NCBI GenBank assembly: GCA_964612105.1
Contig: CAZTEU010000004.1
Coordinates: 60,897 to 124,101 of the forward strand
From: an uncultured Gammaproteobacteria bacterium
GTDB lineage: Bacteria; Patescibacteriota; Patescibacteriia; Magasanikbacterales; UBA922
Direction of reading: 5' to 3'
DNA: 63,205 nt
The notes below the pieces were generated by a model. It made no database searches and was not told the DNA's origin. It saw nothing but the letters and a program-made list of their open reading frames with translations. The position numbers and the translations under genes are program-made. Positions 3,377 to 18,625 of the stretch are shown piece by piece (the first letter of the stretch is position 1; each line of letters opens with the position of its first letter).

Positions 3377-3448
3377 AGCGGCAGACCGGACTTGAACCGG
3401 CGACCTCTTCCTTGGCAAGGAAGCGTTCTACCACTGAACTACTACCGC
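3377..3448 (-). tRNA. tRNA-Gly(GCC)
   Basis: Reverse complement folds with acceptor GCGGTAG/CTGCCGC and anticodon loop TTGCCAA. Confidence 0.95.
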
Positions 3449-3467
3449 ATAGTCCAATACTACTTTG

Positions 3468-5014: not shown

Positions 5015-5084
5015 AGGGGGAGACGATCGTGAAAACAGTAGGGATCGTCAAACTCAAAACAACACCTGTAAAGGTGTTTTTTTG
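5015..5084 (+). repeat. 70-bp direct repeat, copy 1 (hairpin plus terminator)
   Basis: Identical to 5430-5499; GACGATC/GATCGTC stem, then AACACCT-GTAA-AGGTGTT-T run. Confidence 0.9.
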
Positions 5085-5244
5085 TTTTATGACATTAGAA
5101 AAATAATTAATTCAGTTGATTTTAAACGAGCATCTATTGACAGCCGGCCGTTTTTGCGCTACGCTAACATCACTTAATCCGAGCCTAGAAATATAAACCT
5201 ACGGCTGCGGAAATTAGCGCTATATGCGCAGAGAGGTGAGAGTG

Positions 5245-5429: not shown

Positions 5430-5499
5430 AGGGGGAGACGATCGTGAAAACAGTAGGGATCGTCAAACTCAAAACAACACCTGTAAAGGTGTTTTTTTG
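5430..5499 (+). repeat. 70-bp direct repeat, copy 2
   Basis: Identical to 5015-5084. Confidence 0.9.
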
Positions 5500-5581
5500 A
5501 TCTAGGATTGAGGGGTGCTAGAAGCGAGTATTTATTGACTTCCCTAGCTATTCTCTATAAAATATGTTTTAGGAGGTAAAA

Positions 5582-5917: not shown

Positions 5918-5945
5918 AAACGGGCTTATTAGAGGGCGTTAGAGC
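5918..5945. repeat. Array core copy A (degenerate, 10 mismatches)
   Basis: AAACGGGCTTATTAGAGGGCGTTAGAGC followed by TTTTTGTAC as after copy B. Confidence 0.6.
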
Positions 5946-5953
5946 TTTTTGTA

Positions 5954-6679
5954 CTACTTATTCTGCTCCCAAAGCATTGTAAACATAGCATCAAAAATAT
6001 CCACCATTGCTGGAACAGCAATAACCACAGCGAGGGAAGAAAGTTCTGGGCTCACTATCAACACCTTGTCTTTAAAAATATCCATCGTACTTTTGAAACC
6101 ATATTTCTTTGGTAAAAATTTCACCTCGCGTAACAGCTCCTTACTTGTAGGACTATCTTTTCTGGATTCCTCTGTAAGAAGAAGTTTTGTCTTTATTTTT
6201 GCCTTTGCTCTGTCTTTTCTGTATTGCACAAAGAATTCTTTATCCAATCCTTGCCAATGCTTTGCTGTTCCAATAATCTTGTACTCTTTTCCTTTATGCT
6301 CTTCTAACACTTCGTCATAAAACTTTTTTAATTCGTCCACTGTTTCAATAAATCTAAGCCCAACCATGTTGAGCTGTTTTTTTTCTAGTGATTCTAGAGA
6401 GGGGATAAGGTCTTCAAAAGAGGACACCTTCTTTTTGTAATGGTCTGCCACTCGTTGGGGCTTGTCTGCGTAAAATAACTGCTTATTCTTTCTGTAATAC
6501 ATCGTCACAAACCCTTTTTTTGACAGAGCCTTAAGAGTTGCGTACACGGTTGTGCGTTTTATACCCACATCTTTGGCTACCGCACTAGCAATAGCTCCGC
6601 CAGAGCGTAGAAGCGAGACATATATGTCTGCTTCTTGGTCAGAGAGCCCAAGATCCTTTAATGCTTGTTTTGAGGCCAT
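5954..6679 (-). CDS. TrmB-like HTH transcriptional regulator
   Basis: LKDLGLSDQEADIYVSLL...IKRTTVYATLKAL winged-HTH N-terminus. Confidence 0.85.
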   Translation of the reverse strand: MASKQALKDLGLSDQEADIYVSLLRSGGAIASAVAKDVGIKRTTVYATLKALSKKGFVTMYYRKNKQLFYADKPQRVADHYKKKVSSFEDLIPSLESLEKKQLNMVGLRFIETVDELKKFYDEVLEEHKGKEYKIIGTAKHWQGLDKEFFVQYRKDRAKAKIKTKLLLTEESRKDSPTSKELLREVKFLPKKYGFKSTMDIFKDKVLIVSPELSSLAVVIAVPAMVDIFDAMFTMLWEQNK

Positions 6680-6723
6680 ATTACTGTTGTCTAAATATTA
6701 AGACACTTTTTTACTATGCTTAT

Positions 6724-6800
6724 ATTATAGCTTATTTTAGCCATATTGTCAAGCCCTTATGTCTAAAACGGTTGACAAAAGCGGGAAAATAGGGTATAAT
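6724..6800. promoter_or_regulatory. Divergent sigma70 promoters
   Basis: Minus: TTGACA (6752-6747)-17-TATAAT (6729-6724); plus: TTGACA (6772-6777)-17-TATAAT (6795-6800). Confidence 0.8.
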
Positions 6801-6847
6801 GCTCTGTTAACAATCAAGAAGGTTGGAACAAAACATCGCTCTTTAAA

Positions 6848-6938
6848 ACATTCCCGCCCCCACCCATCTGCTTGGAGAGAGGCATATGAGTGGAGGCAGG
6901 GAATTATCCTTGGACCAAACGACCCTGGGAGGGGAAAA
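6848..6938 (+). ncRNA. Conserved structured 5' leader, copy 1
   Basis: Aligns without gaps to 9776-9686 with compensatory base-pair changes. Confidence 0.65.
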
Positions 6939-7490
6939 ATGTGTAAGAAAACCATTTCTATCGTTCAGGCAGTGCGTATGTCCGAGCTCGGTGAGGATGA
7001 GGTGATCATCACGCCAGTCATCGTGGGTCGCAAGCGCGTTTCCGCACTCGTGGAGTTCCGCGCAGCACCTGGGCTCGCAACACTGGTGGATTACCGTGAC
7101 GTCTATCACGGTACCAGAGGTATCCTGCTTGTTGCTGGGCGCGCATTTTACAATGTGTGTGGTTGCTGCCCAGCGCGACGCCCGGATGGGTTGCCTCGGG
7201 AGTACAAGGTCTATGAGGTCTTCCTTACGGGACGTCGAGAGAGGGAGGACATTCCCCACCTCGTTAAGCACTACAACGATGCCTATGCGGAGGGGCTTCG
7301 GAAGGCGATCGCACGTTCCGGTGTGAAAACGGTGGCCGTACGCGAGGCGGGCGAGTTCCAGAGCAAGTTCCGAGATCTCGGTGCGGAGATCGTGGAGCAC
7401 AACAAGTTCCGAAAGCATCTCAAGTGGGATCTCCCCGCGCGTGAGGTGGAGTCGATCTTGGATCGGCTCAAATACATCAAGGAGGACTAG
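6939..7490 (+). CDS. GC-rich orphan protein (183 aa)
   Basis: ATG after GGGAGGGG SD; the longer track ORF runs through the promoter and leader. Confidence 0.7.
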   Translation: MCKKTISIVQAVRMSELGEDEVIITPVIVGRKRVSALVEFRAAPGLATLVDYRDVYHGTRGILLVAGRAFYNVCGCCPARRPDGLPREYKVYEVFLTGRREREDIPHLVKHYNDAYAEGLRKAIARSGVKTVAVREAGEFQSKFRDLGAEIVEHNKFRKHLKWDLPAREVESILDRLKYIKED

Positions 7491-7636
7491 TCGCCGACAA
7501 GCGACAACAACAAAGGTTAAATGGCCGAGTACCTATACAAAATCTCGGCCCAATTCAAAAGAACATCTCACAAAGGTGTTCTTTTGTTTTAGGTTATTTG
7601 TTGTATGGTATAATTACTTCGTTATCAAATATTAAT

Positions 7637-9019
7637 ATGAGTTCAATTCTAATATTATTAGGAATAATCTTTTCCATTTTTGTAATTATACGTCCGTTTA
7701 GGGTTGGTAAAATTAAGATAGACATGGCTTCTGGACCCCTGCTTGTCCTGCTTGTTCTGTTGTTAATTAGGGTAATAGACCTAGATACAATATCTTTTGG
7801 AATATTAGGTGATGGACAAATAAAACCATGGGAAATAATGATAATATTCTTTTCTGTGGCATATGTGAGTATTAGTACAGATGTGACAGGTATTTTTGAT
7901 TATCTTGCGTATAAGGTTGTGCAGGCAGCAAAAGGAAGTGGAATAAAATTATTTGTGTTCTTCTACCTGTTTGCTGGAGTGTTAAGTATTTTTACATCCA
8001 ACGATATAGTTATACTTACGCTAACACCAATAATTTTCTACCTAAGTAAACATGCAAAAATTAATATTCTTCCTCTTTTGTTTGCAGAGTTTTTTGCTGC
8101 AAACACAATGAGCATGTTTTTGTATATAGACAATCCAACAAATATAATGGTTGTAAGTTCGTCAGGGATTGGATTTCTTGAATATGTAAAAGTAATGTGG
8201 TTACCAACGGTTGTTGCTGGTGTAAGCACAATCACTCTTCTTTATCTGGTGTTTAGGAACAAAATTACTAGGAAGTACAAAAGAACCAAAGCAACCATGT
8301 TTGAAGTGCGTAATTGGTTTGATGCAGTATTAAGCAGTGGGCTACTCCTTACAATGCTTATATTCCTTTCTGTTTCTCAGCACGTTGGAATGGATATTTG
8401 GAAAATAACTTTGTTTTTTTGTGTAGTGTTTATTGCAGAAGACATTTGTTTTGGTCTGTACTACAGAATGAGAGAACATAGTCTTACAGACACGCAAAAG
8501 AAAAAGAGTTTGGATGTGTTTAATATTCCAAAAGAGAAGAACGAGTTCTTAATTGCACTAAGAAGAATGCCATGGAAAATATTCCCATTTATTTTTACAT
8601 TCTTTGTGCTAGTGCAAGCATTAAATGATGTGGGTGTGATCTCGTCTATTGCTGTTTTTGTTTCTTCGTTTGCTACTTCACTTTGGTCCAGCATACTAGG
8701 CGTTGGCGCACTAAGTATAGTTTTGGCTAATGTTATGAATAATCAGCCAATGACAATTTTACTCCTAAACGTGCTATTAGATGATAGCTTTAGTCCGACA
8801 GGGATTGTTCATCAGGGGGCAGTATATGCTGTAATAGTTGCAAGTAATTTAGGGGCAAACATTACAATTGTTGGAGCTTTAGCTGGGTTAATGTGGAGAA
8901 AAATTCTAAGGACAAAGAATATAGAAATTTCGTATCTAGACTTTCTAAAGGTCGGAGTTCTAATTACTCCAATTGTGTTCTTAATAACAATAGCTACTCT
9001 TTATTTTGTTATTGCTTAA
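7637..9019 (+). CDS. ArsB/NhaD (ion transporter superfamily) permease
   Basis: SIFTSNDIVILTLTP, NPTNI, ANVMNNQP and ASNLGANITIVGALAGLMW motifs. Confidence 0.85.
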   Translation: MSSILILLGIIFSIFVIIRPFRVGKIKIDMASGPLLVLLVLLLIRVIDLDTISFGILGDGQIKPWEIMIIFFSVAYVSISTDVTGIFDYLAYKVVQAAKGSGIKLFVFFYLFAGVLSIFTSNDIVILTLTPIIFYLSKHAKINILPLLFAEFFAANTMSMFLYIDNPTNIMVVSSSGIGFLEYVKVMWLPTVVAGVSTITLLYLVFRNKITRKYKRTKATMFEVRNWFDAVLSSGLLLTMLIFLSVSQHVGMDIWKITLFFCVVFIAEDICFGLYYRMREHSLTDTQKKKSLDVFNIPKEKNEFLIALRRMPWKIFPFIFTFFVLVQALNDVGVISSIAVFVSSFATSLWSSILGVGALSIVLANVMNNQPMTILLLNVLLDDSFSPTGIVHQGAVYAVIVASNLGANITIVGALAGLMWRKILRTKNIEISYLDFLKVGVLITPIVFLITIATLYFVIA

Positions 9020-9031
9020 TCTTACACATAC

Positions 9032-9091
9032 AAAACAACGCCTTATTAGGCGCTGTTTTTGTTTGAGCTGGATACTAGAGGACGTTAGAAC
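9032..9091. repeat. Array junction B: hairpin plus 28-bp core (9064-9091)
   Basis: AAAACAACGCC/GGCGCTGTTTT then TGAGCTGGATACTAGAGGACGTTAGAAC. Confidence 0.9.
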
Positions 9092-9214
9092 TTTTTGTAC
9101 ACAAAAAATCACCTGATAAGGGTGATTCTTTGTTATCTTTTTTGTACAAACAAGAATGTGCCGAGTTTACGTGACGGCTGCACGGGGTGGCGAGTCCAAT
9201 CTTGCCAATTCCTC

Positions 9215-9685
9215 CTACAGAATTTTGAAGTTGAGCCTCACGGAGACGGACACCAGGTCCACCCCGCCGGCATAGCTGATGTATGCCACGGGAGTGGCAA
9301 CTTTCAGCGTCTTGCTGACTGGGAAGATCGGTACGATCGCCCCGCCAACGGCATAGGTGTTCTTTTTGGGGACCCAGCGCGTCAGTCCAGTGGCGCCAAC
9401 CAAGAAGTGCTTGTTCACTTTCTTGATAGCCCCGACGATCATCTGCGGCTGTACCACCAACTTGGTAGTCGGAGTGAACACTCCAACCTCCAGGAAAGCT
9501 GCCCAACCATCAGCGATGGGTTGTACAGCGTGGATTCCCAGGGCTGCGCCGACAGGCAGATCTTTGTCGACGTTGATGGCCTTTGGGAAAGCCATGTAGG
9601 TTCCCAGACCCAACGAGGCTCCCTGCGCCTCGAAGGCGATGAGGGAACAGAACAACGAAATGAGAAAGAACGAAGTGCGAGTCAT
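9215..9685 (-). CDS. GC-rich secreted orphan with beta-strand-rich (barrel-like) pattern
   Basis: Signal peptide (…AFEAQGA), alternating hydrophobic strands, C-terminal SVSVRLNFKIL. Confidence 0.6.
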   Translation of the reverse strand: MTRTSFFLISLFCSLIAFEAQGASLGLGTYMAFPKAINVDKDLPVGAALGIHAVQPIADGWAAFLEVGVFTPTTKLVVQPQMIVGAIKKVNKHFLVGATGLTRWVPKKNTYAVGGAIVPIFPVSKTLKVATPVAYISYAGGVDLVSVSVRLNFKIL

Positions 9686-9776
9686 GATTTCCCTCCCAGG
9701 GAAGTGTGGGGTCGGGCTTATTCCCGATCTCCACTCATATGCCTCTCTCTAGGCAGATGGGTGAAAATGGGAATGT
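9686..9776 (-). ncRNA. Conserved structured 5' leader, copy 2
   Basis: Homologous to 6848-6938; promoter TTGACA (9824-9819)-17-TATAAT (9801-9796). Confidence 0.65.
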
Positions 9777-9932
9777 CTTAACTTAATAACACAGCATTAT
9801 ATCATAAAAAACTATACTTGTCAAGTCTTTTTGGCTAAGTAAAGCCAAATATAGTCATTATGTATCTGATAATCAAACTACTTATTTGACAAAATGCCTA
9901 TAAATTAGCATAATACTACTGTCATAAATTAT

Positions 9933-11081
9933 GTGACAGAATATAGTATGAAACTAACGCCCCTAGGTTTTTCAAAAAACGAAGAGAAAGTTTATCTTTC
10001 TTTGTTTGAATTAGGTAAAACTCGTGCTGGAAAAGTGATAGAACACACTTCCCTGCATAGAAATTTGGTCTATACTGCTCTTGAGGCACTTTTGGAGCGT
10101 GATTTAATAACAAAGACACTGCAAGGAGGTGTAAGTGTGTTCTCAGCAAATAATCCAGATAGGTTAGTTGAAGAAATTGAAAGTAAAAAAAGTGAAGCAA
10201 TAGCAATAGCAGAAGAATTAAAGAAGAAAGTTGACCTACAAACAAGAGAAGTTGTAATTTTTGAGGGGGCTGAAGGTATAGAAAGAGCAATGCGCCAGAA
10301 TCTACAAGCTCAAAAAGGAAAAACAGTCTACGCATTGGGTGCTTCCGCAAATAACGAGACATCAGAATCGCAAATGTTTTCAAGAAAATATCATAATGAA
10401 TTGATTGAAAAAGGAATTTCTTTTAAAGCTCTGTACGGAAGAAATGTTGAGGACGGTATTGTTGAAGAAAAAAAGAAATTATCCAACGCAGAAGTAAAAT
10501 ATATGCCAACAAGCATTGAAGCACCCATGTGGTTTAATATTTGTGGGGATGTTAGTTCAATTATTTCAATGGACAAGAACCCCTTGGCAATCAACATAAA
10601 AAGTGAGTCCATTGCGGAAGGATTAAAACAATACTTTAATCACTTATGGAATCAAAAAGTAATGACATTTGAGGGAGACAGAGGGTTTAAACATGCATTT
10701 GGTGATATTTTAAAAACACTCCAAAGAGGAGATGAGCTAATGATTTTGGGAATTCCTGAATTTGATCAAGAGTTTATAAATATGATAAGGGATTTTCATA
10801 AAAAAAGAGCAGGGCAGGGAATTATTTCTAGAATACTGTTAAATGAGGGTGCAAAAGATATGGGAGAGACGCTTAGAAAAATTGCACACACCAAAATTAA
10901 ATATATGCAGCGCGGTGTAGTTACTCCTGCTGCCCTCTTAATTTACAAAAATAAAACATTAATTAGTCTGCCAAGCAGGAGGACTTTTATGCAGATAGAT
11001 GACAAAGAGACTACGCAGTCTTTCACACACCACTTCAATGAGCTGTGGAGTACAAAAGAAAAACAAGATTTAAAAATGTAG
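9933..11081 (+). CDS. TrmB-like regulator with duplicated C-terminal effector domain
   Basis: LGFSKNEEKVYLSLFELG HTH; two VVIFEG/VMTFEG-initiated domains. Confidence 0.8.
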   Translation: MTEYSMKLTPLGFSKNEEKVYLSLFELGKTRAGKVIEHTSLHRNLVYTALEALLERDLITKTLQGGVSVFSANNPDRLVEEIESKKSEAIAIAEELKKKVDLQTREVVIFEGAEGIERAMRQNLQAQKGKTVYALGASANNETSESQMFSRKYHNELIEKGISFKALYGRNVEDGIVEEKKKLSNAEVKYMPTSIEAPMWFNICGDVSSIISMDKNPLAINIKSESIAEGLKQYFNHLWNQKVMTFEGDRGFKHAFGDILKTLQRGDELMILGIPEFDQEFINMIRDFHKKRAGQGIISRILLNEGAKDMGETLRKIAHTKIKYMQRGVVTPAALLIYKNKTLISLPSRRTFMQIDDKETTQSFTHHFNELWSTKEKQDLKM

Positions 11082-11098
11082 ATTTGCAATATTCATAA

Positions 11099-11159
11099 AA
11101 AAACAACGCTAATCCCAGCGCTGTTTTTATTTGAGGTGGTTACTGGATGATGTTAGAAC
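11099..11159. repeat. Array junction C (core 11132-11159)
   Basis: Hairpin plus TGAGGTGGTTACTGGATGATGTTAGAAC; overlaps the stop codon of the neighbouring toxin-like gene. Confidence 0.85.
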
Positions 11160-11524
11160 TGGGTCTTCTCAAAGTTCCCCTGATCAATGTCTTCGATTGC
11201 ACTATCTAATGAATTAAGAATTAGAATCTTTGCTTTTTTATTATTCATTGACAGGTTTTCGCCAAACACCTTATCCTTTTTTAATCTAATCACAATTGGA
11301 ATGACAAGATTCTTTTGTTTATACATGAAAACAATTAATCTACCTGCCACCTTGTGAACCATTCTTAATTTAAATAGTTCTCCACCTGTATATCCCAGGT
11401 TCGAGAGTCGTACTTTCTGGCCACGCAATTTGTTTACAGCTTTTTTGATATCCTCCAACGAATAATATTTTTTAATCAGTTTGTATTCTTTTTGAAGAAA
11501 TGATTTCGTCAAAATCAGTATCAT
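11153..11524 (-). CDS. Putative RelE/ParE-like toxin
   Basis: Small basic protein, MILILTKSF start, LFKLRM..GRLIVF; downstream of an RHH-like gene. Confidence 0.5.
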   Translation of the reverse strand: MILILTKSFLQKEYKLIKKYYSLEDIKKAVNKLRGQKVRLSNLGYTGGELFKLRMVHKVAGRLIVFMYKQKNLVIPIVIRLKKDKVFGENLSMNNKKAKILILNSLDSAIEDIDQGNFEKTQF

Positions 11525-11775: not shown

Positions 11776-11836
11776 ATTGCTATATAGTTTATTACTACAT
11801 TTAAACTATATATTATGATTGAGTGTTTGTCAAGTA

Positions 11837-11897
11837 AAAAACAATACTAATCCTAGCGCTGTTTTAATTTGGGCTGGCTACTAGAGGACGTTAGAAC
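11837..11897. repeat. Array junction D (core 11870-11897)
   Basis: Hairpin plus TGGGCTGGCTACTAGAGGACGTTAGAAC. Confidence 0.9.
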
Positions 11898-12029
11898 TGG
11901 AATAATAAAAAAAGAACAAATTGTTCTTGTATGAAAGTCCATGTCCGCCCGCCCGTGCTTGTTGCTCGATGAGCGGACACGGACGGACGCGCTCCTTCTG
12001 GGCTCGTGCAGCGAAGGGGTGTAACACGG

Positions 12030-12851: not shown

Positions 12852-12900
12852 TCGATGGCAAAAAAGCGGTACCTTTCGGGGTGCCGCTATTCTTTTCTAA

Positions 12901-12961
12901 AAAAACAACACCAGTCTTAATGTTGTTTTTAGGTGAGCCGAGTACTAGAGAGCGTCAGAGC
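12901..12961. repeat. Array junction E (core 12934-12961, 7 mismatches)
   Basis: Hairpin AAAAACAACA/TGTTGTTTTT plus TGAGCCGAGTACTAGAGAGCGTCAGAGC. Confidence 0.75.
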
Positions 12962-12981
12962 TGGGTGGGTGGTGTAAATTT

Positions 12982-13592: not shown

Positions 13593-13697
13593 TCCAGACT
13601 GTCCCGCTACCCAATGTTAGAATAAAAAACACTGCCGTATGTAGCAGTGTTTTAGCTCTTTCAGAAAATTGAGCTGGCTACCAGAGGACGTTAGAAC
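13593..13697. repeat. Array junction F, long type (core 13670-13697)
   Basis: TTCCAG…CCCAATGTTAGAAT, hairpin AAAACACTGC/GCAGTGTTTT, then TGAGCTGGCTACCAGAGGACGTTAGAAC. Confidence 0.9.
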
Positions 13698-14545: not shown

Positions 14546-14604
14546 ATTTTTTATTTAATATGTTGTGATTATACCACAGTTCGGCATTCCAGTCCCCAGT
14601 AACA

Positions 14605-14665
14605 AAAAACAACGCTAATCTTAGCGCTGTTTTCATTTGAGCTGGCTACTAGAGGGCGTTAGAAC
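14605..14665. repeat. Array junction G (core 14638-14665)
   Basis: Hairpin plus TGAGCTGGCTACTAGAGGGCGTTAGAAC. Confidence 0.9.
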
Positions 14666-14672
14666 TTTTTGT

Positions 14673-15206
14673 CTACTTAGGGCCTAGTAAATCCTTGTGA
14701 AATTCATACAAAGAGCTTCCAACCATTTCAATTGCTTGTGTTTCTTTGTTATCGCTATTTATCAATACAGATTGAGCTTTTTCTGTGTCAACAAGCGCCA
14801 TTTCTACTGTTCCGTCTTTGTGCCCCTCCATGTAATACCCTCTTTTCTTTATCTTTTTAAGAATATTCGCATAATCTGAGTTTGTCATTGAGCGAACTCT
14901 CCAGACCTCATGTTTTTTGTGCTTGTTAAATTCCTCAAATATTTTATCGACTGTAAAAAGACGTTCGTTCACCTTCTGCCTGAAATTATCTGGATCCTCT
15001 ATTTTGTAATAATATCTGTTTCCCATTTTTGAGTGGTTAATAAAACCCTTTTCTTCCAAAGAGCGCAGATATTCCTGGCAACTTGTTCGTAGTATTCCTG
15101 TTTTGTCCGCGAGCTCAGATACTTTTGCACTTCCAAGTCTAAGAAGAGTTCTATATACAAGAATTTCTTTATCAGAAAAATTAAATTGTCTTAATAATTG
15201 TTCCAT
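14673..15206 (-). CDS. TrmB-like HTH regulator
   Basis: FNFSDKEILVYRTLLRLG...ILRTSCQEYLRSLEEKGF. Confidence 0.8.
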   Translation of the reverse strand: MEQLLRQFNFSDKEILVYRTLLRLGSAKVSELADKTGILRTSCQEYLRSLEEKGFINHSKMGNRYYYKIEDPDNFRQKVNERLFTVDKIFEEFNKHKKHEVWRVRSMTNSDYANILKKIKKRGYYMEGHKDGTVEMALVDTEKAQSVLINSDNKETQAIEMVGSSLYEFHKDLLGPK

Positions 15207-16574: not shown

Positions 16575-16639
16575 GCAAAAAGGTTTCCGCGTTTTCCTGA
16601 AAAAACGCGAGCACAAAAGAACATCTGTAAAGGTGTTTT

Positions 16640-16770
16640 TTTGTTTAGTTCCAACCTCCCCACACCATTCCAGTCGCCAGTACCCAAGGTTAGAACCAAA
16701 AACACTGCTAGATTTAGCAGTGTTTTAACTCTTTCGGGAAAATGAGCTGGCTACTAGAGGACGTTAGAAA
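16640..16770. repeat. Array junction H, long type (core 16743-16770)
   Basis: Same layout as F; TGAGCTGGCTACTAGAGGACGTTAGAAA. Confidence 0.9.
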
Positions 16771-16947
16771 TGGAATTGTACTACAGTGACTTAGTTTGTC
16801 TGCTAAGTCCCCACAACATGCTGAGTGTTGTTCTCATGAATTCTACAAAATCACCACCCTCAACTAAAATCAATTTTTTGGTTTGGAGAATATTCAAAAA
16901 TACTGCATAAATGCAGTATTTTTGAAGCGAATGTGAAAATCATGATT

Positions 16948-17424
16948 TTAATCAAGTTTTTTGAAATTAAGCCAAGTCCCGCTTGCCGACTTTTCATCTT
17001 CAGGGAGAAGGCCAACAAGAGCCTCTGTAAGACTATTGTTTTCATGGCCTGCTCTGAACAGAGCCCTTTCATCATCAATTCTCTCACCCTCTCTGAAGAC
17101 AGACCCCTCATGTAAATCTGCAGCCATTTGACGTAGAACACTATGTTGATGAGCCAGAACAATTTGTTTTGCAATGAGCTTCATATAAGATTCGTCTGCT
17201 TCTTCAATGGCATCGCCATAAGGGTCAGACTCTCTACTGGGAAGATGTTCTTTCCCGAGTTCACGAACCTCAGCAAGAACATCATCAAATGTCGGAACTT
17301 TATCTTGGTAAGCACGGTCAAGTTCCTCAAAATCAAGTCGATTATCCATCTCTGATTCTTGGTTAGAGGTATCGCTCTCAATATCTTTTTTGGGTACTTT
17401 CCTCCCCATTCCTTCATTATTCAT
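16948..17424 (-). CDS. Acidic hypothetical protein, copy 1
   Basis: 158-aa ORF; start uncertain. Confidence 0.6.
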   Translation of the reverse strand: MNNEGMGRKVPKKDIESDTSNQESEMDNRLDFEELDRAYQDKVPTFDDVLAEVRELGKEHLPSRESDPYGDAIEEADESYMKLIAKQIVLAHQHSVLRQMAADLHEGSVFREGERIDDERALFRAGHENNSLTEALVGLLPEDEKSASGTWLNFKKLD

Positions 17425-17544
17425 AATGAAATAATATAATTTATTAATAATATATTAACTATACACTAATTAATCCAAAGTTTCAAGACCTTTTGAATGC
17501 TGACCAATTCCTGTGGTAATTAATCAGACGTGTGGCTGACATTT

Positions 17545-17675
17545 CTTGTTCAGTTCTAATCTCCTCACACCATTCCAGTCGCCAGCACCCAAGGTTAGAA
17601 CCAAAAACACTGCTAGATTTAGCAGTGTTTTAACTCTTTCGGGAAAATGAGCTGGCTACTAGAGGACGTTAGAAA
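17545..17675. repeat. Array junction I (core 17648-17675)
   Basis: Core identical to H. Confidence 0.9.
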
Positions 17676-17852
17676 TGGAATTGTACTACAGTGACTTAGT
17701 TTGTCTGCTAAGTCCCCACAACATGCTGAGTGTTGTTCTCATGAATTCTACAAAATCACCACCCTCAACTAAAATCAATTTTTTGGTTTGGAGAATATTC
17801 AAAAATACTGCATAAATGCAGTATTTTTGAAGCGAATGTGAAAATCATGATT

Positions 17853-18329
17853 TTAATCAAGTTTTTTGAAATTAAGCCAAGTCCCGCTTGCCGACTTTTC
17901 ATCTTCAGGGAGAAGGCCAACAAGAGCCTCTGTAAGACTATTGTTTTCATGGCCTGCTCTGAACAGAGCCCTTTCATCATCAATTCTCTCACCCTCTCTG
18001 AAGACAGACCCCTCATGTAAATCTGCAGCCATTTGACGTAGAACACTATGTTGATGAGCCAGAACAATTTGTTTTGCAATGAGCTTCATATAAGATTCGT
18101 CTGCTTCTTCAATGGCATCGCCATAAGGGTCAGACTCTCTACTGGGAAGATGTTCTTTCCCGAGTTCACGAACCTCAGCAAGAACATCATCAAATGTCGG
18201 AACTTTATCTTGGTAAGCACGGTCAAGTTCCTCAAAATCAAGTCGATTATCCATCTCTGATTCTTGGTTAGAGGTATCGCTCTCAATATCTTTTTTGGGT
18301 ACTTTCCTCCCCATTCCTTCATTATTCAT
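17853..18329 (-). CDS. Acidic hypothetical protein, copy 2
   Basis: Identical to 16948..17424. Confidence 0.6.
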   Translation of the reverse strand: MNNEGMGRKVPKKDIESDTSNQESEMDNRLDFEELDRAYQDKVPTFDDVLAEVRELGKEHLPSRESDPYGDAIEEADESYMKLIAKQIVLAHQHSVLRQMAADLHEGSVFREGERIDDERALFRAGHENNSLTEALVGLLPEDEKSASGTWLNFKKLD

Positions 18330-18553
18330 AATGAAATAATATAATTTATTAATAATATATTAACTATACACTAATTAATCCAAAGTTTCAAGACCTTTTG
18401 AATGCTGACCAATTCCTGTGGTAATTAATCAGACGTGTGGCTGACATTTCTTGTTCAGTTCTAATCTCCTCACACCATTCCAGTCGCCAGCACCCAAGGT
18501 TAGAACCAAAAACACTGCTAGATTTAGCAGTGTTTTAAGGGTTTTGGAAAATG

Positions 18554-18625
18554 AGCGGACGACCGGAATCGAACCGGCATCATCGGCTTGGAAGGCCGAG
18601 ATAATAACCATTATACGACGTCCGC
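18554..18625 (-). tRNA. tRNA-Gly(TCC)
   Basis: Acceptor GCGGACG/CGTCCGC, anticodon loop CTTCCAA, T-loop TTCGATT. Confidence 0.95.

Follow-up and report, generated by a model that had tools for sequence, protein, structure and literature searches.

Why should two genes that encode unrelated proteins begin their messages with almost the same leader, and what might such a leader do? The question arises in a stretch of 63,205 nucleotides (nt), hereafter called the window, from contig CAZTEU010000004.1 of an uncultured bacterium placed in the Magasanikbacterales (Patescibacteriota). The host genome comprises 0.94 Mb in 8 contigs with 39% guanine plus cytosine (GC). To our knowledge, almost no cis-regulatory RNAs have been described in the Candidate Phyla Radiation (CPR, or Patescibacteria), and we know of nothing on the expression of GC-rich accessory genes in these organisms. 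The element shared by the two genes, P0001 and P0002, is a real, uncatalogued 5' leader that is under selection at the level of the sense RNA. It looks more like a module for messenger RNA (mRNA) stability or expression than like a riboswitch. We favour, with a probability of roughly 45%, the reading that this expression leader stabilises the message at its 5' end or is processed, and that it represents a single sequence family in a class of leaders that combine a motif with a hairpin.

Conservation and pairing in the two leaders

The two copies, at 6846-6941 on the plus strand before P0001 and at 9778-9683 on the minus strand before P0002, aligned without a gap over 96 nt with the ATG start codon at the end, as the initial annotation of this locus had described. 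Identity was 72/96 positions (75%), or 76% over 89 nt by BLAST. A 35-nt core of the leader occurred exactly twice in the window, compared with an expectation of 0, and its count in the whole genome was likewise two, both by BLAST and with a covariance model. Both copies were also present, letter-identical and in unchanged arrangement and orientation, in an independently assembled metagenome contig of the Joint Genome Institute (L060). Hence the pair is not an assembly artefact, and a chance origin of the shared leader is excluded.

Conservation between the copies was mosaic. The apical stem (alignment columns 16-50) was identical at 33/35 positions and the linker (columns 60-77) at 8/18, while the block around the Shine-Dalgarno (SD) sequence, CCCTGGGAGGG, was identical at 11/11. 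The spacers of the two promoters agreed at 4/17 positions, and the longest perfect match between the leaders was 22 nt. This mosaic argues for selection on specific parts of the leader over one recent copying event or one conversion tract, as do the flanking regulators, which are only 25% identical, and the unrelated downstream genes. All statements on covariation below are drawn from a sample of two sequences, namely the two leader copies. The structural features of the leaders are as follows, where ORF denotes an open reading frame and uORF one that lies upstream of the main gene.

6850-6904, plus strand: main hairpin of copy 1, columns 5-59, with 21 pairs, 3 mismatches, a bulged A53 and the loop GGAGAG
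9720-9774, minus strand: main hairpin of copy 2, columns 5-59, with 22 pairs, 2 mismatches, a bulged C53 and the loop AGAGAG
6897-6912, plus strand: alternative hairpin of copy 1, columns 52-57 with 62-67, incompatible with the basal part of the main stem and with the outer anti-SD pairing
9712-9727, minus strand: alternative hairpin of copy 2, columns 52-56 with 63-67
6908-6935, plus strand: pairing of the C-rich linker with the SD of copy 1, GGGAGGGG (6927-6934)
9691-9716, minus strand: pairing of the C-rich linker with the SD of copy 2, GGGAGGG (9691-9697)
6886-7005, plus strand: possible uORF of copy 1, 39 amino acids, with its AUG in the 3' arm, 7 nt past the SD-like loop, and overlapping the start of P0001 out of frame
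9718-9738, minus strand: possible uORF of copy 2, 6 amino acids (MSGDRE, then a stop)

The calculated folding energies of the 55-nt main hairpin were -29.0 kcal/mol for copy 1 and -26.7 kcal/mol for copy 2, with z-scores of -4.2 and -6.1, respectively. Of the 24 differences between the copies, 10 were located in the hairpin, and none of these disrupted a pair. Two pairs changed on both sides between copy 1 and copy 2 (11-52, G-C to A-U; 12-51, C-G to U-A), which bore out the compensatory block that had been claimed for this stem. Three further pairs changed on one side from C-G to U-G (13-50, 15-48 and 27-36), and the position 14-49 was C.A in copy 1 and U-A in copy 2. Within the 5' arm, CCCC in copy 1 corresponded to UUUU in copy 2, facing constant G's, a change that is neutral in the sense RNA, unlike in an antisense RNA or in a DNA site with symmetry. 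Exactly the pairs of this CCCC/UUUU stretch with G were lost when copy 2 was folded as antisense RNA.

When the same 10 changes were placed at random, all pairs were kept in 0.3% of placements with copy 1 as the initial sequence and in 6% with copy 2. A shuffle control gave 137/500, a value that is uninformative with two sequences. Covariation in the main stem is only suggestive with this sample (simulated P = 0.003-0.06). The view that the leader acts in the sense RNA is supported by the substitutions, which preserve pairing best there. Two non-canonical mismatches in the apical stem, C19.A44 and C23.U40, were conserved between the copies.

An alternative downstream hairpin, which the initial annotation had also proposed, was present in both copies and carried two double changes of its own (52-67, C-G versus U-A; 53-66, A-U versus C-G), with a simulated P of ~0.07 for the two sequences. 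Column 52 co-varied with both of its possible partners, columns 11 and 67. The calculated energy of the alternative state was 2.8-4.8 kcal/mol above that of the minimum-energy fold. When the alternative helix was forced, the freed 5' arm re-paired with the SD, so that no clean ON state is predicted.

In the minimum-energy folds of both copies, the SD guanines paired with conserved C's of the linker in columns 63-65 and 70-72, and this pairing replaces the CCCT-GGG-AGGG mini-hairpin that had been drawn at the SD. The paired probability of the SD guanines in copy 1 was 0.84-0.95, except for G84 with 0.14, and that of A85 was 0.19. Opening the region from -15 to +5 around the start required 11.9 kcal/mol and 8.4 kcal/mol, values that rank 20th and 66th among the 179 SD-led starts of the genome. 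The SD is thus mostly paired in both copies, as had been claimed, but the strength of this sequestration is ordinary, and the ranks rule out an exceptional one. As regards the possible uORFs, the difference in length between 6 and 39 amino acids argues against a conserved peptide. An N-terminal extension of the proteins, or a coding leader, was ruled out by the in-frame stop in copy 2 and by substitutions that followed no codon pattern.

Occurrence of the leader and of similar hairpins

A covariance-model scan of the whole window against Rfam 15 at gathering thresholds returned tRNAs only. With expectation values (E) up to 10, the region 6600-10000 yielded only microRNA-type noise of 17-20 bits on the hairpin. 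The leader had not been recognised as a known family, and it has no match in Rfam. Further copies were sought with a covariance model (R1), whose construction from two closely similar copies would leave distant relatives undetected. In the organism's own genome this model found only the two known copies, and it detected no others when applied to 60 relatives and to 240 genomes from the order. Its application to 401 genomes from the class yielded a single match of 24 bits, with many non-pairs and no ATG, which was judged to be due to chance. Scans for the exact core in public collections of genome, metagenome and viral contigs gave no match, and a scan with a 17-mer gave 25 loci, 0 of which had the leader structure. 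The element was likewise not found in the upstream regions of the P0001 homologues. Across the collections searched, the leader thus appears to occur only in this organism.

These results do not sustain the earlier suggestion of a riboswitch-like RNA family, as two copies are known from one lineage and none was found in the 240 and 401 genomes or at the loci of the P0001 homologues. Neither an Rfam match nor homologues without covariation came to light, the searched data holding no further homologues of the leader.

Hairpins of 19-26 bp were, in comparison, found in the 5' untranslated regions (UTRs) of many other GC-rich genes of the genome. Their sequences all differ, and some of them are located between the genes of one operon. 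Most such hairpins have an AU-rich motif, TC[TA]TTA[CA]AA (TCWTTAMAA), within 50 nt upstream. For the strict motif TCWTTAMAA, 7/36 hairpins of at least 20 bp carried it at most 50 nt upstream, versus 0.09 expected. The 150 nt downstream had a mean GC content of 54% for motif-bearing hairpins and 43% for the other hairpins. Members of this class, and the motif of copy 1, are listed here.

C7:12071-12118: class hairpin
C7:49211-49264: class hairpin
C5:10118-10168(-): class hairpin
C2:94026-94078(-): class hairpin
C6:628-683 / 2161-2216 / 3403-3452(-): class hairpins
C1:172474-172527(-): class hairpin
Window 6836-6904: class hairpin
Window 6836-6847, plus strand: AU-rich motif CGCTCTTTAAAA of copy 1, directly 5' of the hairpin, an instance of TC[TA]TTA[CA]AA

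The class hairpins may serve as signals for processing or stabilisation, or they may mark the boundaries of cassettes. That the leader falls within a genome-wide class of long hairpins before GC-rich genes favours a role in mRNA stability or processing over the sensing of a ligand. Ribonuclease (RNase) Y, RNase J and RNase III are all encoded in the genome, with matches of 581, 469 and 222 bits, respectively, all above curated cut-offs. These enzymes make up the Bacillus-type decay system, whose classical stabilisers are 5' stem-loops and SD-like sequences bound by ribosomes.

The two gene units and their surroundings

Each leader gene is a self-contained unit of promoter, leader, single ORF and terminator. 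Both promoters are 12/12 matches to the consensus with 17-nt spacers, as had been stated, and the predicted transcription starts are located ~40 nt (copy 1) and ~14 nt (copy 2) upstream of the stem. A comparison of P0001 with P0002 showed no relation, in agreement with the initial annotation. The features of the two units and of the adjoining regulators are listed below.

6772-6800, plus strand: promoter of leader 1 and P0001, TTGACA-17-TATAAT, 12/12, homologous including the spacer to its counterpart in the orthologous module at L047
9796-9824, minus strand: promoter of leader 2 and P0002, TTGACA-17-TATAAT, 12/12, with an extended -10 TG
6939-7490, plus strand: P0001, 183 amino acids, 56-60% GC with codon periodicity, rare family with the motif FxxVCGCC
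9215-9685, minus strand: P0002, 156 amino acids, whose N-terminus resembles a signal peptide and whose body is beta-rich
7507-7590, plus strand: 3' trailer and terminator of P0001, 84 nt, with the terminator stem at 7556-7586
9102-9127, minus strand: terminator-like hairpin and T-run after P0002
5954-6679, minus strand: TrmB-like regulator 1, divergent from leader 1 and sharing 52% identity with the TrmB gene beside the P0001 homologue in L047
9933-11081, plus strand: TrmB-like regulator 2, divergent from leader 2

An exhaustive search of 1.8 billion representatives gave four distant relatives of P0001 with an invariant FxxVCGCC motif, and homologues of P0002 other than P0002 itself were not found. 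The description of both genes as orphans therefore holds for P0002 and not for P0001. With AlphaFold models of the two proteins (predicted local distance difference test, pLDDT, 40 and 58), Foldseek gave no match. The alternating, beta-rich body of P0002 ends in ...RLNFKIL and recalls small outer-membrane beta-barrels, which would be odd for a presumably single-membrane CPR cell (model pLDDT 40). That the GC-rich islands are large non-coding RNAs was ruled out by the codon periodicity of both ORFs and by the protein homologues of P0001.

The loci of the P0001 family are L044-L049, and in 3/5 members (P0001, P0007 and P0010) the gene adjoins a divergent TrmB-like gene. The two TrmB-like regulators of the window are 25% identical to each other. 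In the module at L047 the protein is 49% identical and the TrmB-like regulator 52% identical to the counterpart in the window. The L047 promoter is homologous through the spacer and for ~20 nt further, after which the leader differs completely, and past the shared promoter lie another gene and another hairpin. The combination of the same promoter with a different leader indicates that the lineage of the present genome acquired the hairpin leader, either as a gain or by a swap. At L047:960-1008 and 1440-1488, two consecutive genes share another leader of ~45 nt next to the SD (AACAAGTCCTGAC...AGG.AAGGAG), in which a small hairpin abuts the SD. Leader sharing between genes appears to recur in L047 with a different sequence.

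The P0001 trailer, a hairpin plus a terminator, recurs with 90% identity at C5:96532-96613, downstream of another GC-rich orphan gene, which also adjoins a TrmB-like gene but has a different 5' leader. Beside TrmB-like gene 2, a palindrome, CTGTCATAAATTATGTGACAG, at 9919-9939 overlaps the start codon, just past a promoter at 9886-9914, and the relative L010 carries TTCTAAAATTTAGAA at the equivalent position. This palindrome is likely an autoregulatory operator of TrmB-like gene 2.

The two leaders occupy adjacent units, 2.7 kb apart, in an array that is delimited by the repeat TACTAGAGGACGTTAGAACT.

5927-5954, 9030-9100, 11098-11160, 11836-11898, 12900-12962, 13608-13696, 14604-14674, 16681-16769 and 17586-17674: repeat family ...GAGCTGGCTACTAGAGGACGTTAGAACT, delimiting successive gene units
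18554-18625, minus strand: tRNA by the repeat array

A tandem duplication of 905 bp was also observed at 16637-18551. UTR segments are reused elsewhere in the window, as a 78-nt 3' element, made up of the stem GACGATC/GATCGTC and a terminator, is present with 96% identity at 5015-5092 and 5430-5507, after two different CxxC Zn-ribbon microgenes. The two CxxC microprotein genes each have their own promoter and an SD of the AGAGGTGA type. In base composition, each leader with its gene forms an island of 55-60% GC within flanks of 31-36% GC, and the GC content of ORFs is bimodal genome-wide, with modes of ~37% and ~55%. The GC-rich set includes giant secreted CDDGNxCTxDxC cysteine-repeat proteins, whose GC content at third codon positions was ~0.8, versus 0.3 for housekeeping genes. 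Examples of GC-rich ORFs are C3:129243-132398, C7:12142-14100 and C7:49316-51979.

Function of the leader and comparison with known systems

In the reading as a stabiliser or processing-type leader, the element would be a lineage-restricted structured 5' UTR with two paralogous copies, and a separate consensus promoter drives each of them, together with the single GC-rich accessory gene that follows. The 22-bp stem-loop near the 5' end of the mRNA would most likely protect or define that end against RNase Y, RNase J and possibly RNase III. The loop would present the SD-like sequence GGAGAGAGG, and the conserved apical sequence, an SD-like loop followed by an AUG, may reflect ribosome docking. 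Translation would then be driven by the strong SD GGGAGGG, which pairs with the C-rich linker in a weak helix, and no ligand would be sensed. If this is true, the leader is a useful but ordinary expression module. The leader itself offers a clean and compact case, re-assembled independently, of a 5' UTR in a CPR organism on which selection acts through the RNA, and the combination of motif and long hairpin before GC-rich genes may give stable, well-translated messages or mark processing.

Several observations weigh against this reading. With predicted starts ~40 and ~14 nt upstream, the hairpin would become 5'-terminal only after processing by cleavage at the AU-rich motif, and in copy 2 this motif is present only in a degenerate form. 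The near-invariant 35 apical nucleotides and the two conserved mismatches would be unexpected for a pure stabiliser, and the alternative helix with its two double changes is left unexplained by the model.

The conserved apical part and the alternative helix would be accommodated by a true post-transcriptional switch that is riboswitch-like, protein-binding or coupled to the uORF and that co-regulates the two genes as a mini-regulon, an explanation that we regard as possible but somewhat unlikely. Recognition of the apical stem, whether by a factor, by a ligand or by the ribosome, would select either the full hairpin with anti-SD:SD pairing or the helix 52-57/62-67. This would fit a stem that is kept, with its mismatches, beside a diverged linker, the double changes of the alternative helix, the co-variation of column 52 with both 11 and 67, the mostly paired SD guanines and the small energy difference between the two states. 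Moreover, the loop GGAGAGAGG and the AUG that follows could start a short ORF whose translation would unzip the anti-SD. However, covariation cannot reach significance with two copies in one lineage (P ~0.07 for the alternative helix), the alternative state re-pairs the SD and gives no clean ON state, and the SD opening energies rank unexceptionally. The uORF has 6 amino acids in one copy and 39 in the other, and the orthologous P0001 module of another lineage does without the element. What stands of the translational control proposed in the initial annotation is a structured sense RNA before two unrelated genes, with some covariation and a mutually exclusive helix. Its masking of the SD, in contrast, proved ordinary, and the alternative state keeps the SD paired. 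Unlikely, too, is a translational switch of a new class, specific to this lineage. In it, a ligand, a protein or an initiating ribosome would read the conserved apical hairpin, with its two fixed mismatches and its SD-like loop before an AUG, and so toggle two mutually exclusive helices (columns 11, 52 and 67 co-vary three ways) by which the SD is controlled. The two accessory genes, in neighbouring cassette units, would then form one post-transcriptional regulon atop the separate TrmB-like regulators. Were the switch reading true, the leader would represent a new class of regulatory RNA.

The length of the stem, about two helical turns (21-22 pairs, against a duplex criterion of ~20 bp), would also suit an RNase III site, at which a cut in the duplex removes part of the 5' leader and sets the stability or translatability of the mRNA. 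The enzyme is encoded, and other leaders of the class are near-perfect duplexes of 20-26 bp, some of them between operon genes. We consider such a site improbable, as the present stem has three mismatches and a bulge and a cut would part the SD-like loop from the message. Equally little weight is given to a functionless relic, that is, a leader segment copied or gene-converted between neighbouring units and since altered by drift and patchy conversion. The proximity of the copies in adjacent units of the repeat-delimited array, and the UTR segments common to other unrelated genes of the genome, are compatible with it, but ten stem substitutions left every pair intact, and the identity is a mosaic with no contiguous tract, in which the 11-nt SD block is identical past the poorly conserved linker. 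A role at the level of DNA is very improbable. The leaders would then be operators for the divergent TrmB-like regulators, or inverted copies bounding an invertible segment (6942-9682) that swaps genes between promoters. Each copy is indeed divergent from a TrmB-like gene, 3/5 members of the P0001 family adjoin one, and together the copies make up an inverted repeat of 99 nt with a separation of 2741 nt. Yet 3/5 changed stem positions are one-armed, so that DNA symmetry is broken and RNA pairing is kept via G-U. The nested symmetry of 55 bp far exceeds the short AT-rich palindromes at TrmB-like promoters (9919-9939; L010), and the apical stem is invariant although the regulators are only 25% identical. 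The longest perfect match of 22 nt and the same orientation in the independent assembly L060 are further points against.

Among known systems, integron attC sites resemble the hairpin class of this genome, which keeps its structure, varies in sequence and adjoins compositionally foreign single-gene units. Unlike attC, the leader hairpin is located between promoter and start codon, within the transcript, and the units are opposed, each with its own promoter and terminator. Cores of the type RYYYAAC/GTTRRRY were not found by inspection at the feet of the leader stem, which are ACATTCCC and GGGAAT. Changes on one arm that retain G-U pairing in RNA, and the loss of pairs in the antisense fold, speak against both attC and a DNA operator. 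The AGAGAGG-containing terminal loop recalls the PyrR-binding loop (RF00515), a candidate that was rejected, as the leader was absent from the genome's matches at E up to 10 and the best PyrR protein match had 17.4 bits against a cut-off of 140.

With SD-sequestering riboswitches and RNA thermometers such as ROSE and fourU, the leader shares mutually exclusive helices and an SD that pairs with a pyrimidine-rich segment upstream. It differs from them in having no Rfam match at E up to 10, in its restriction to two copies within a single lineage and in its ordinary masking of the SD. Unlike in riboswitches, the functions of the genes offer no ligand logic, and the two downstream genes are unrelated.

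The Bacillus-type 5' stabilisers include the aprE leader (a 5' stem-loop plus a strong ribosome-binding site, RBS), the cryIIIA STAB-SD, the ermC 5' elements and the gapA mRNA after processing by RNase Y. In comparison with these, the stem of the present leader is much longer (22 bp) and is located 14-40 nt from the predicted start, and the leader has a conserved apical sequence and an upstream AU-rich motif common to other leaders. It resembles them in its stable stem-loop near the 5' end, its SD-like sequence upstream of the RBS, its strong SD and a host that encodes both RNase J and RNase Y, and by analogy with them it may have a stabilising role.

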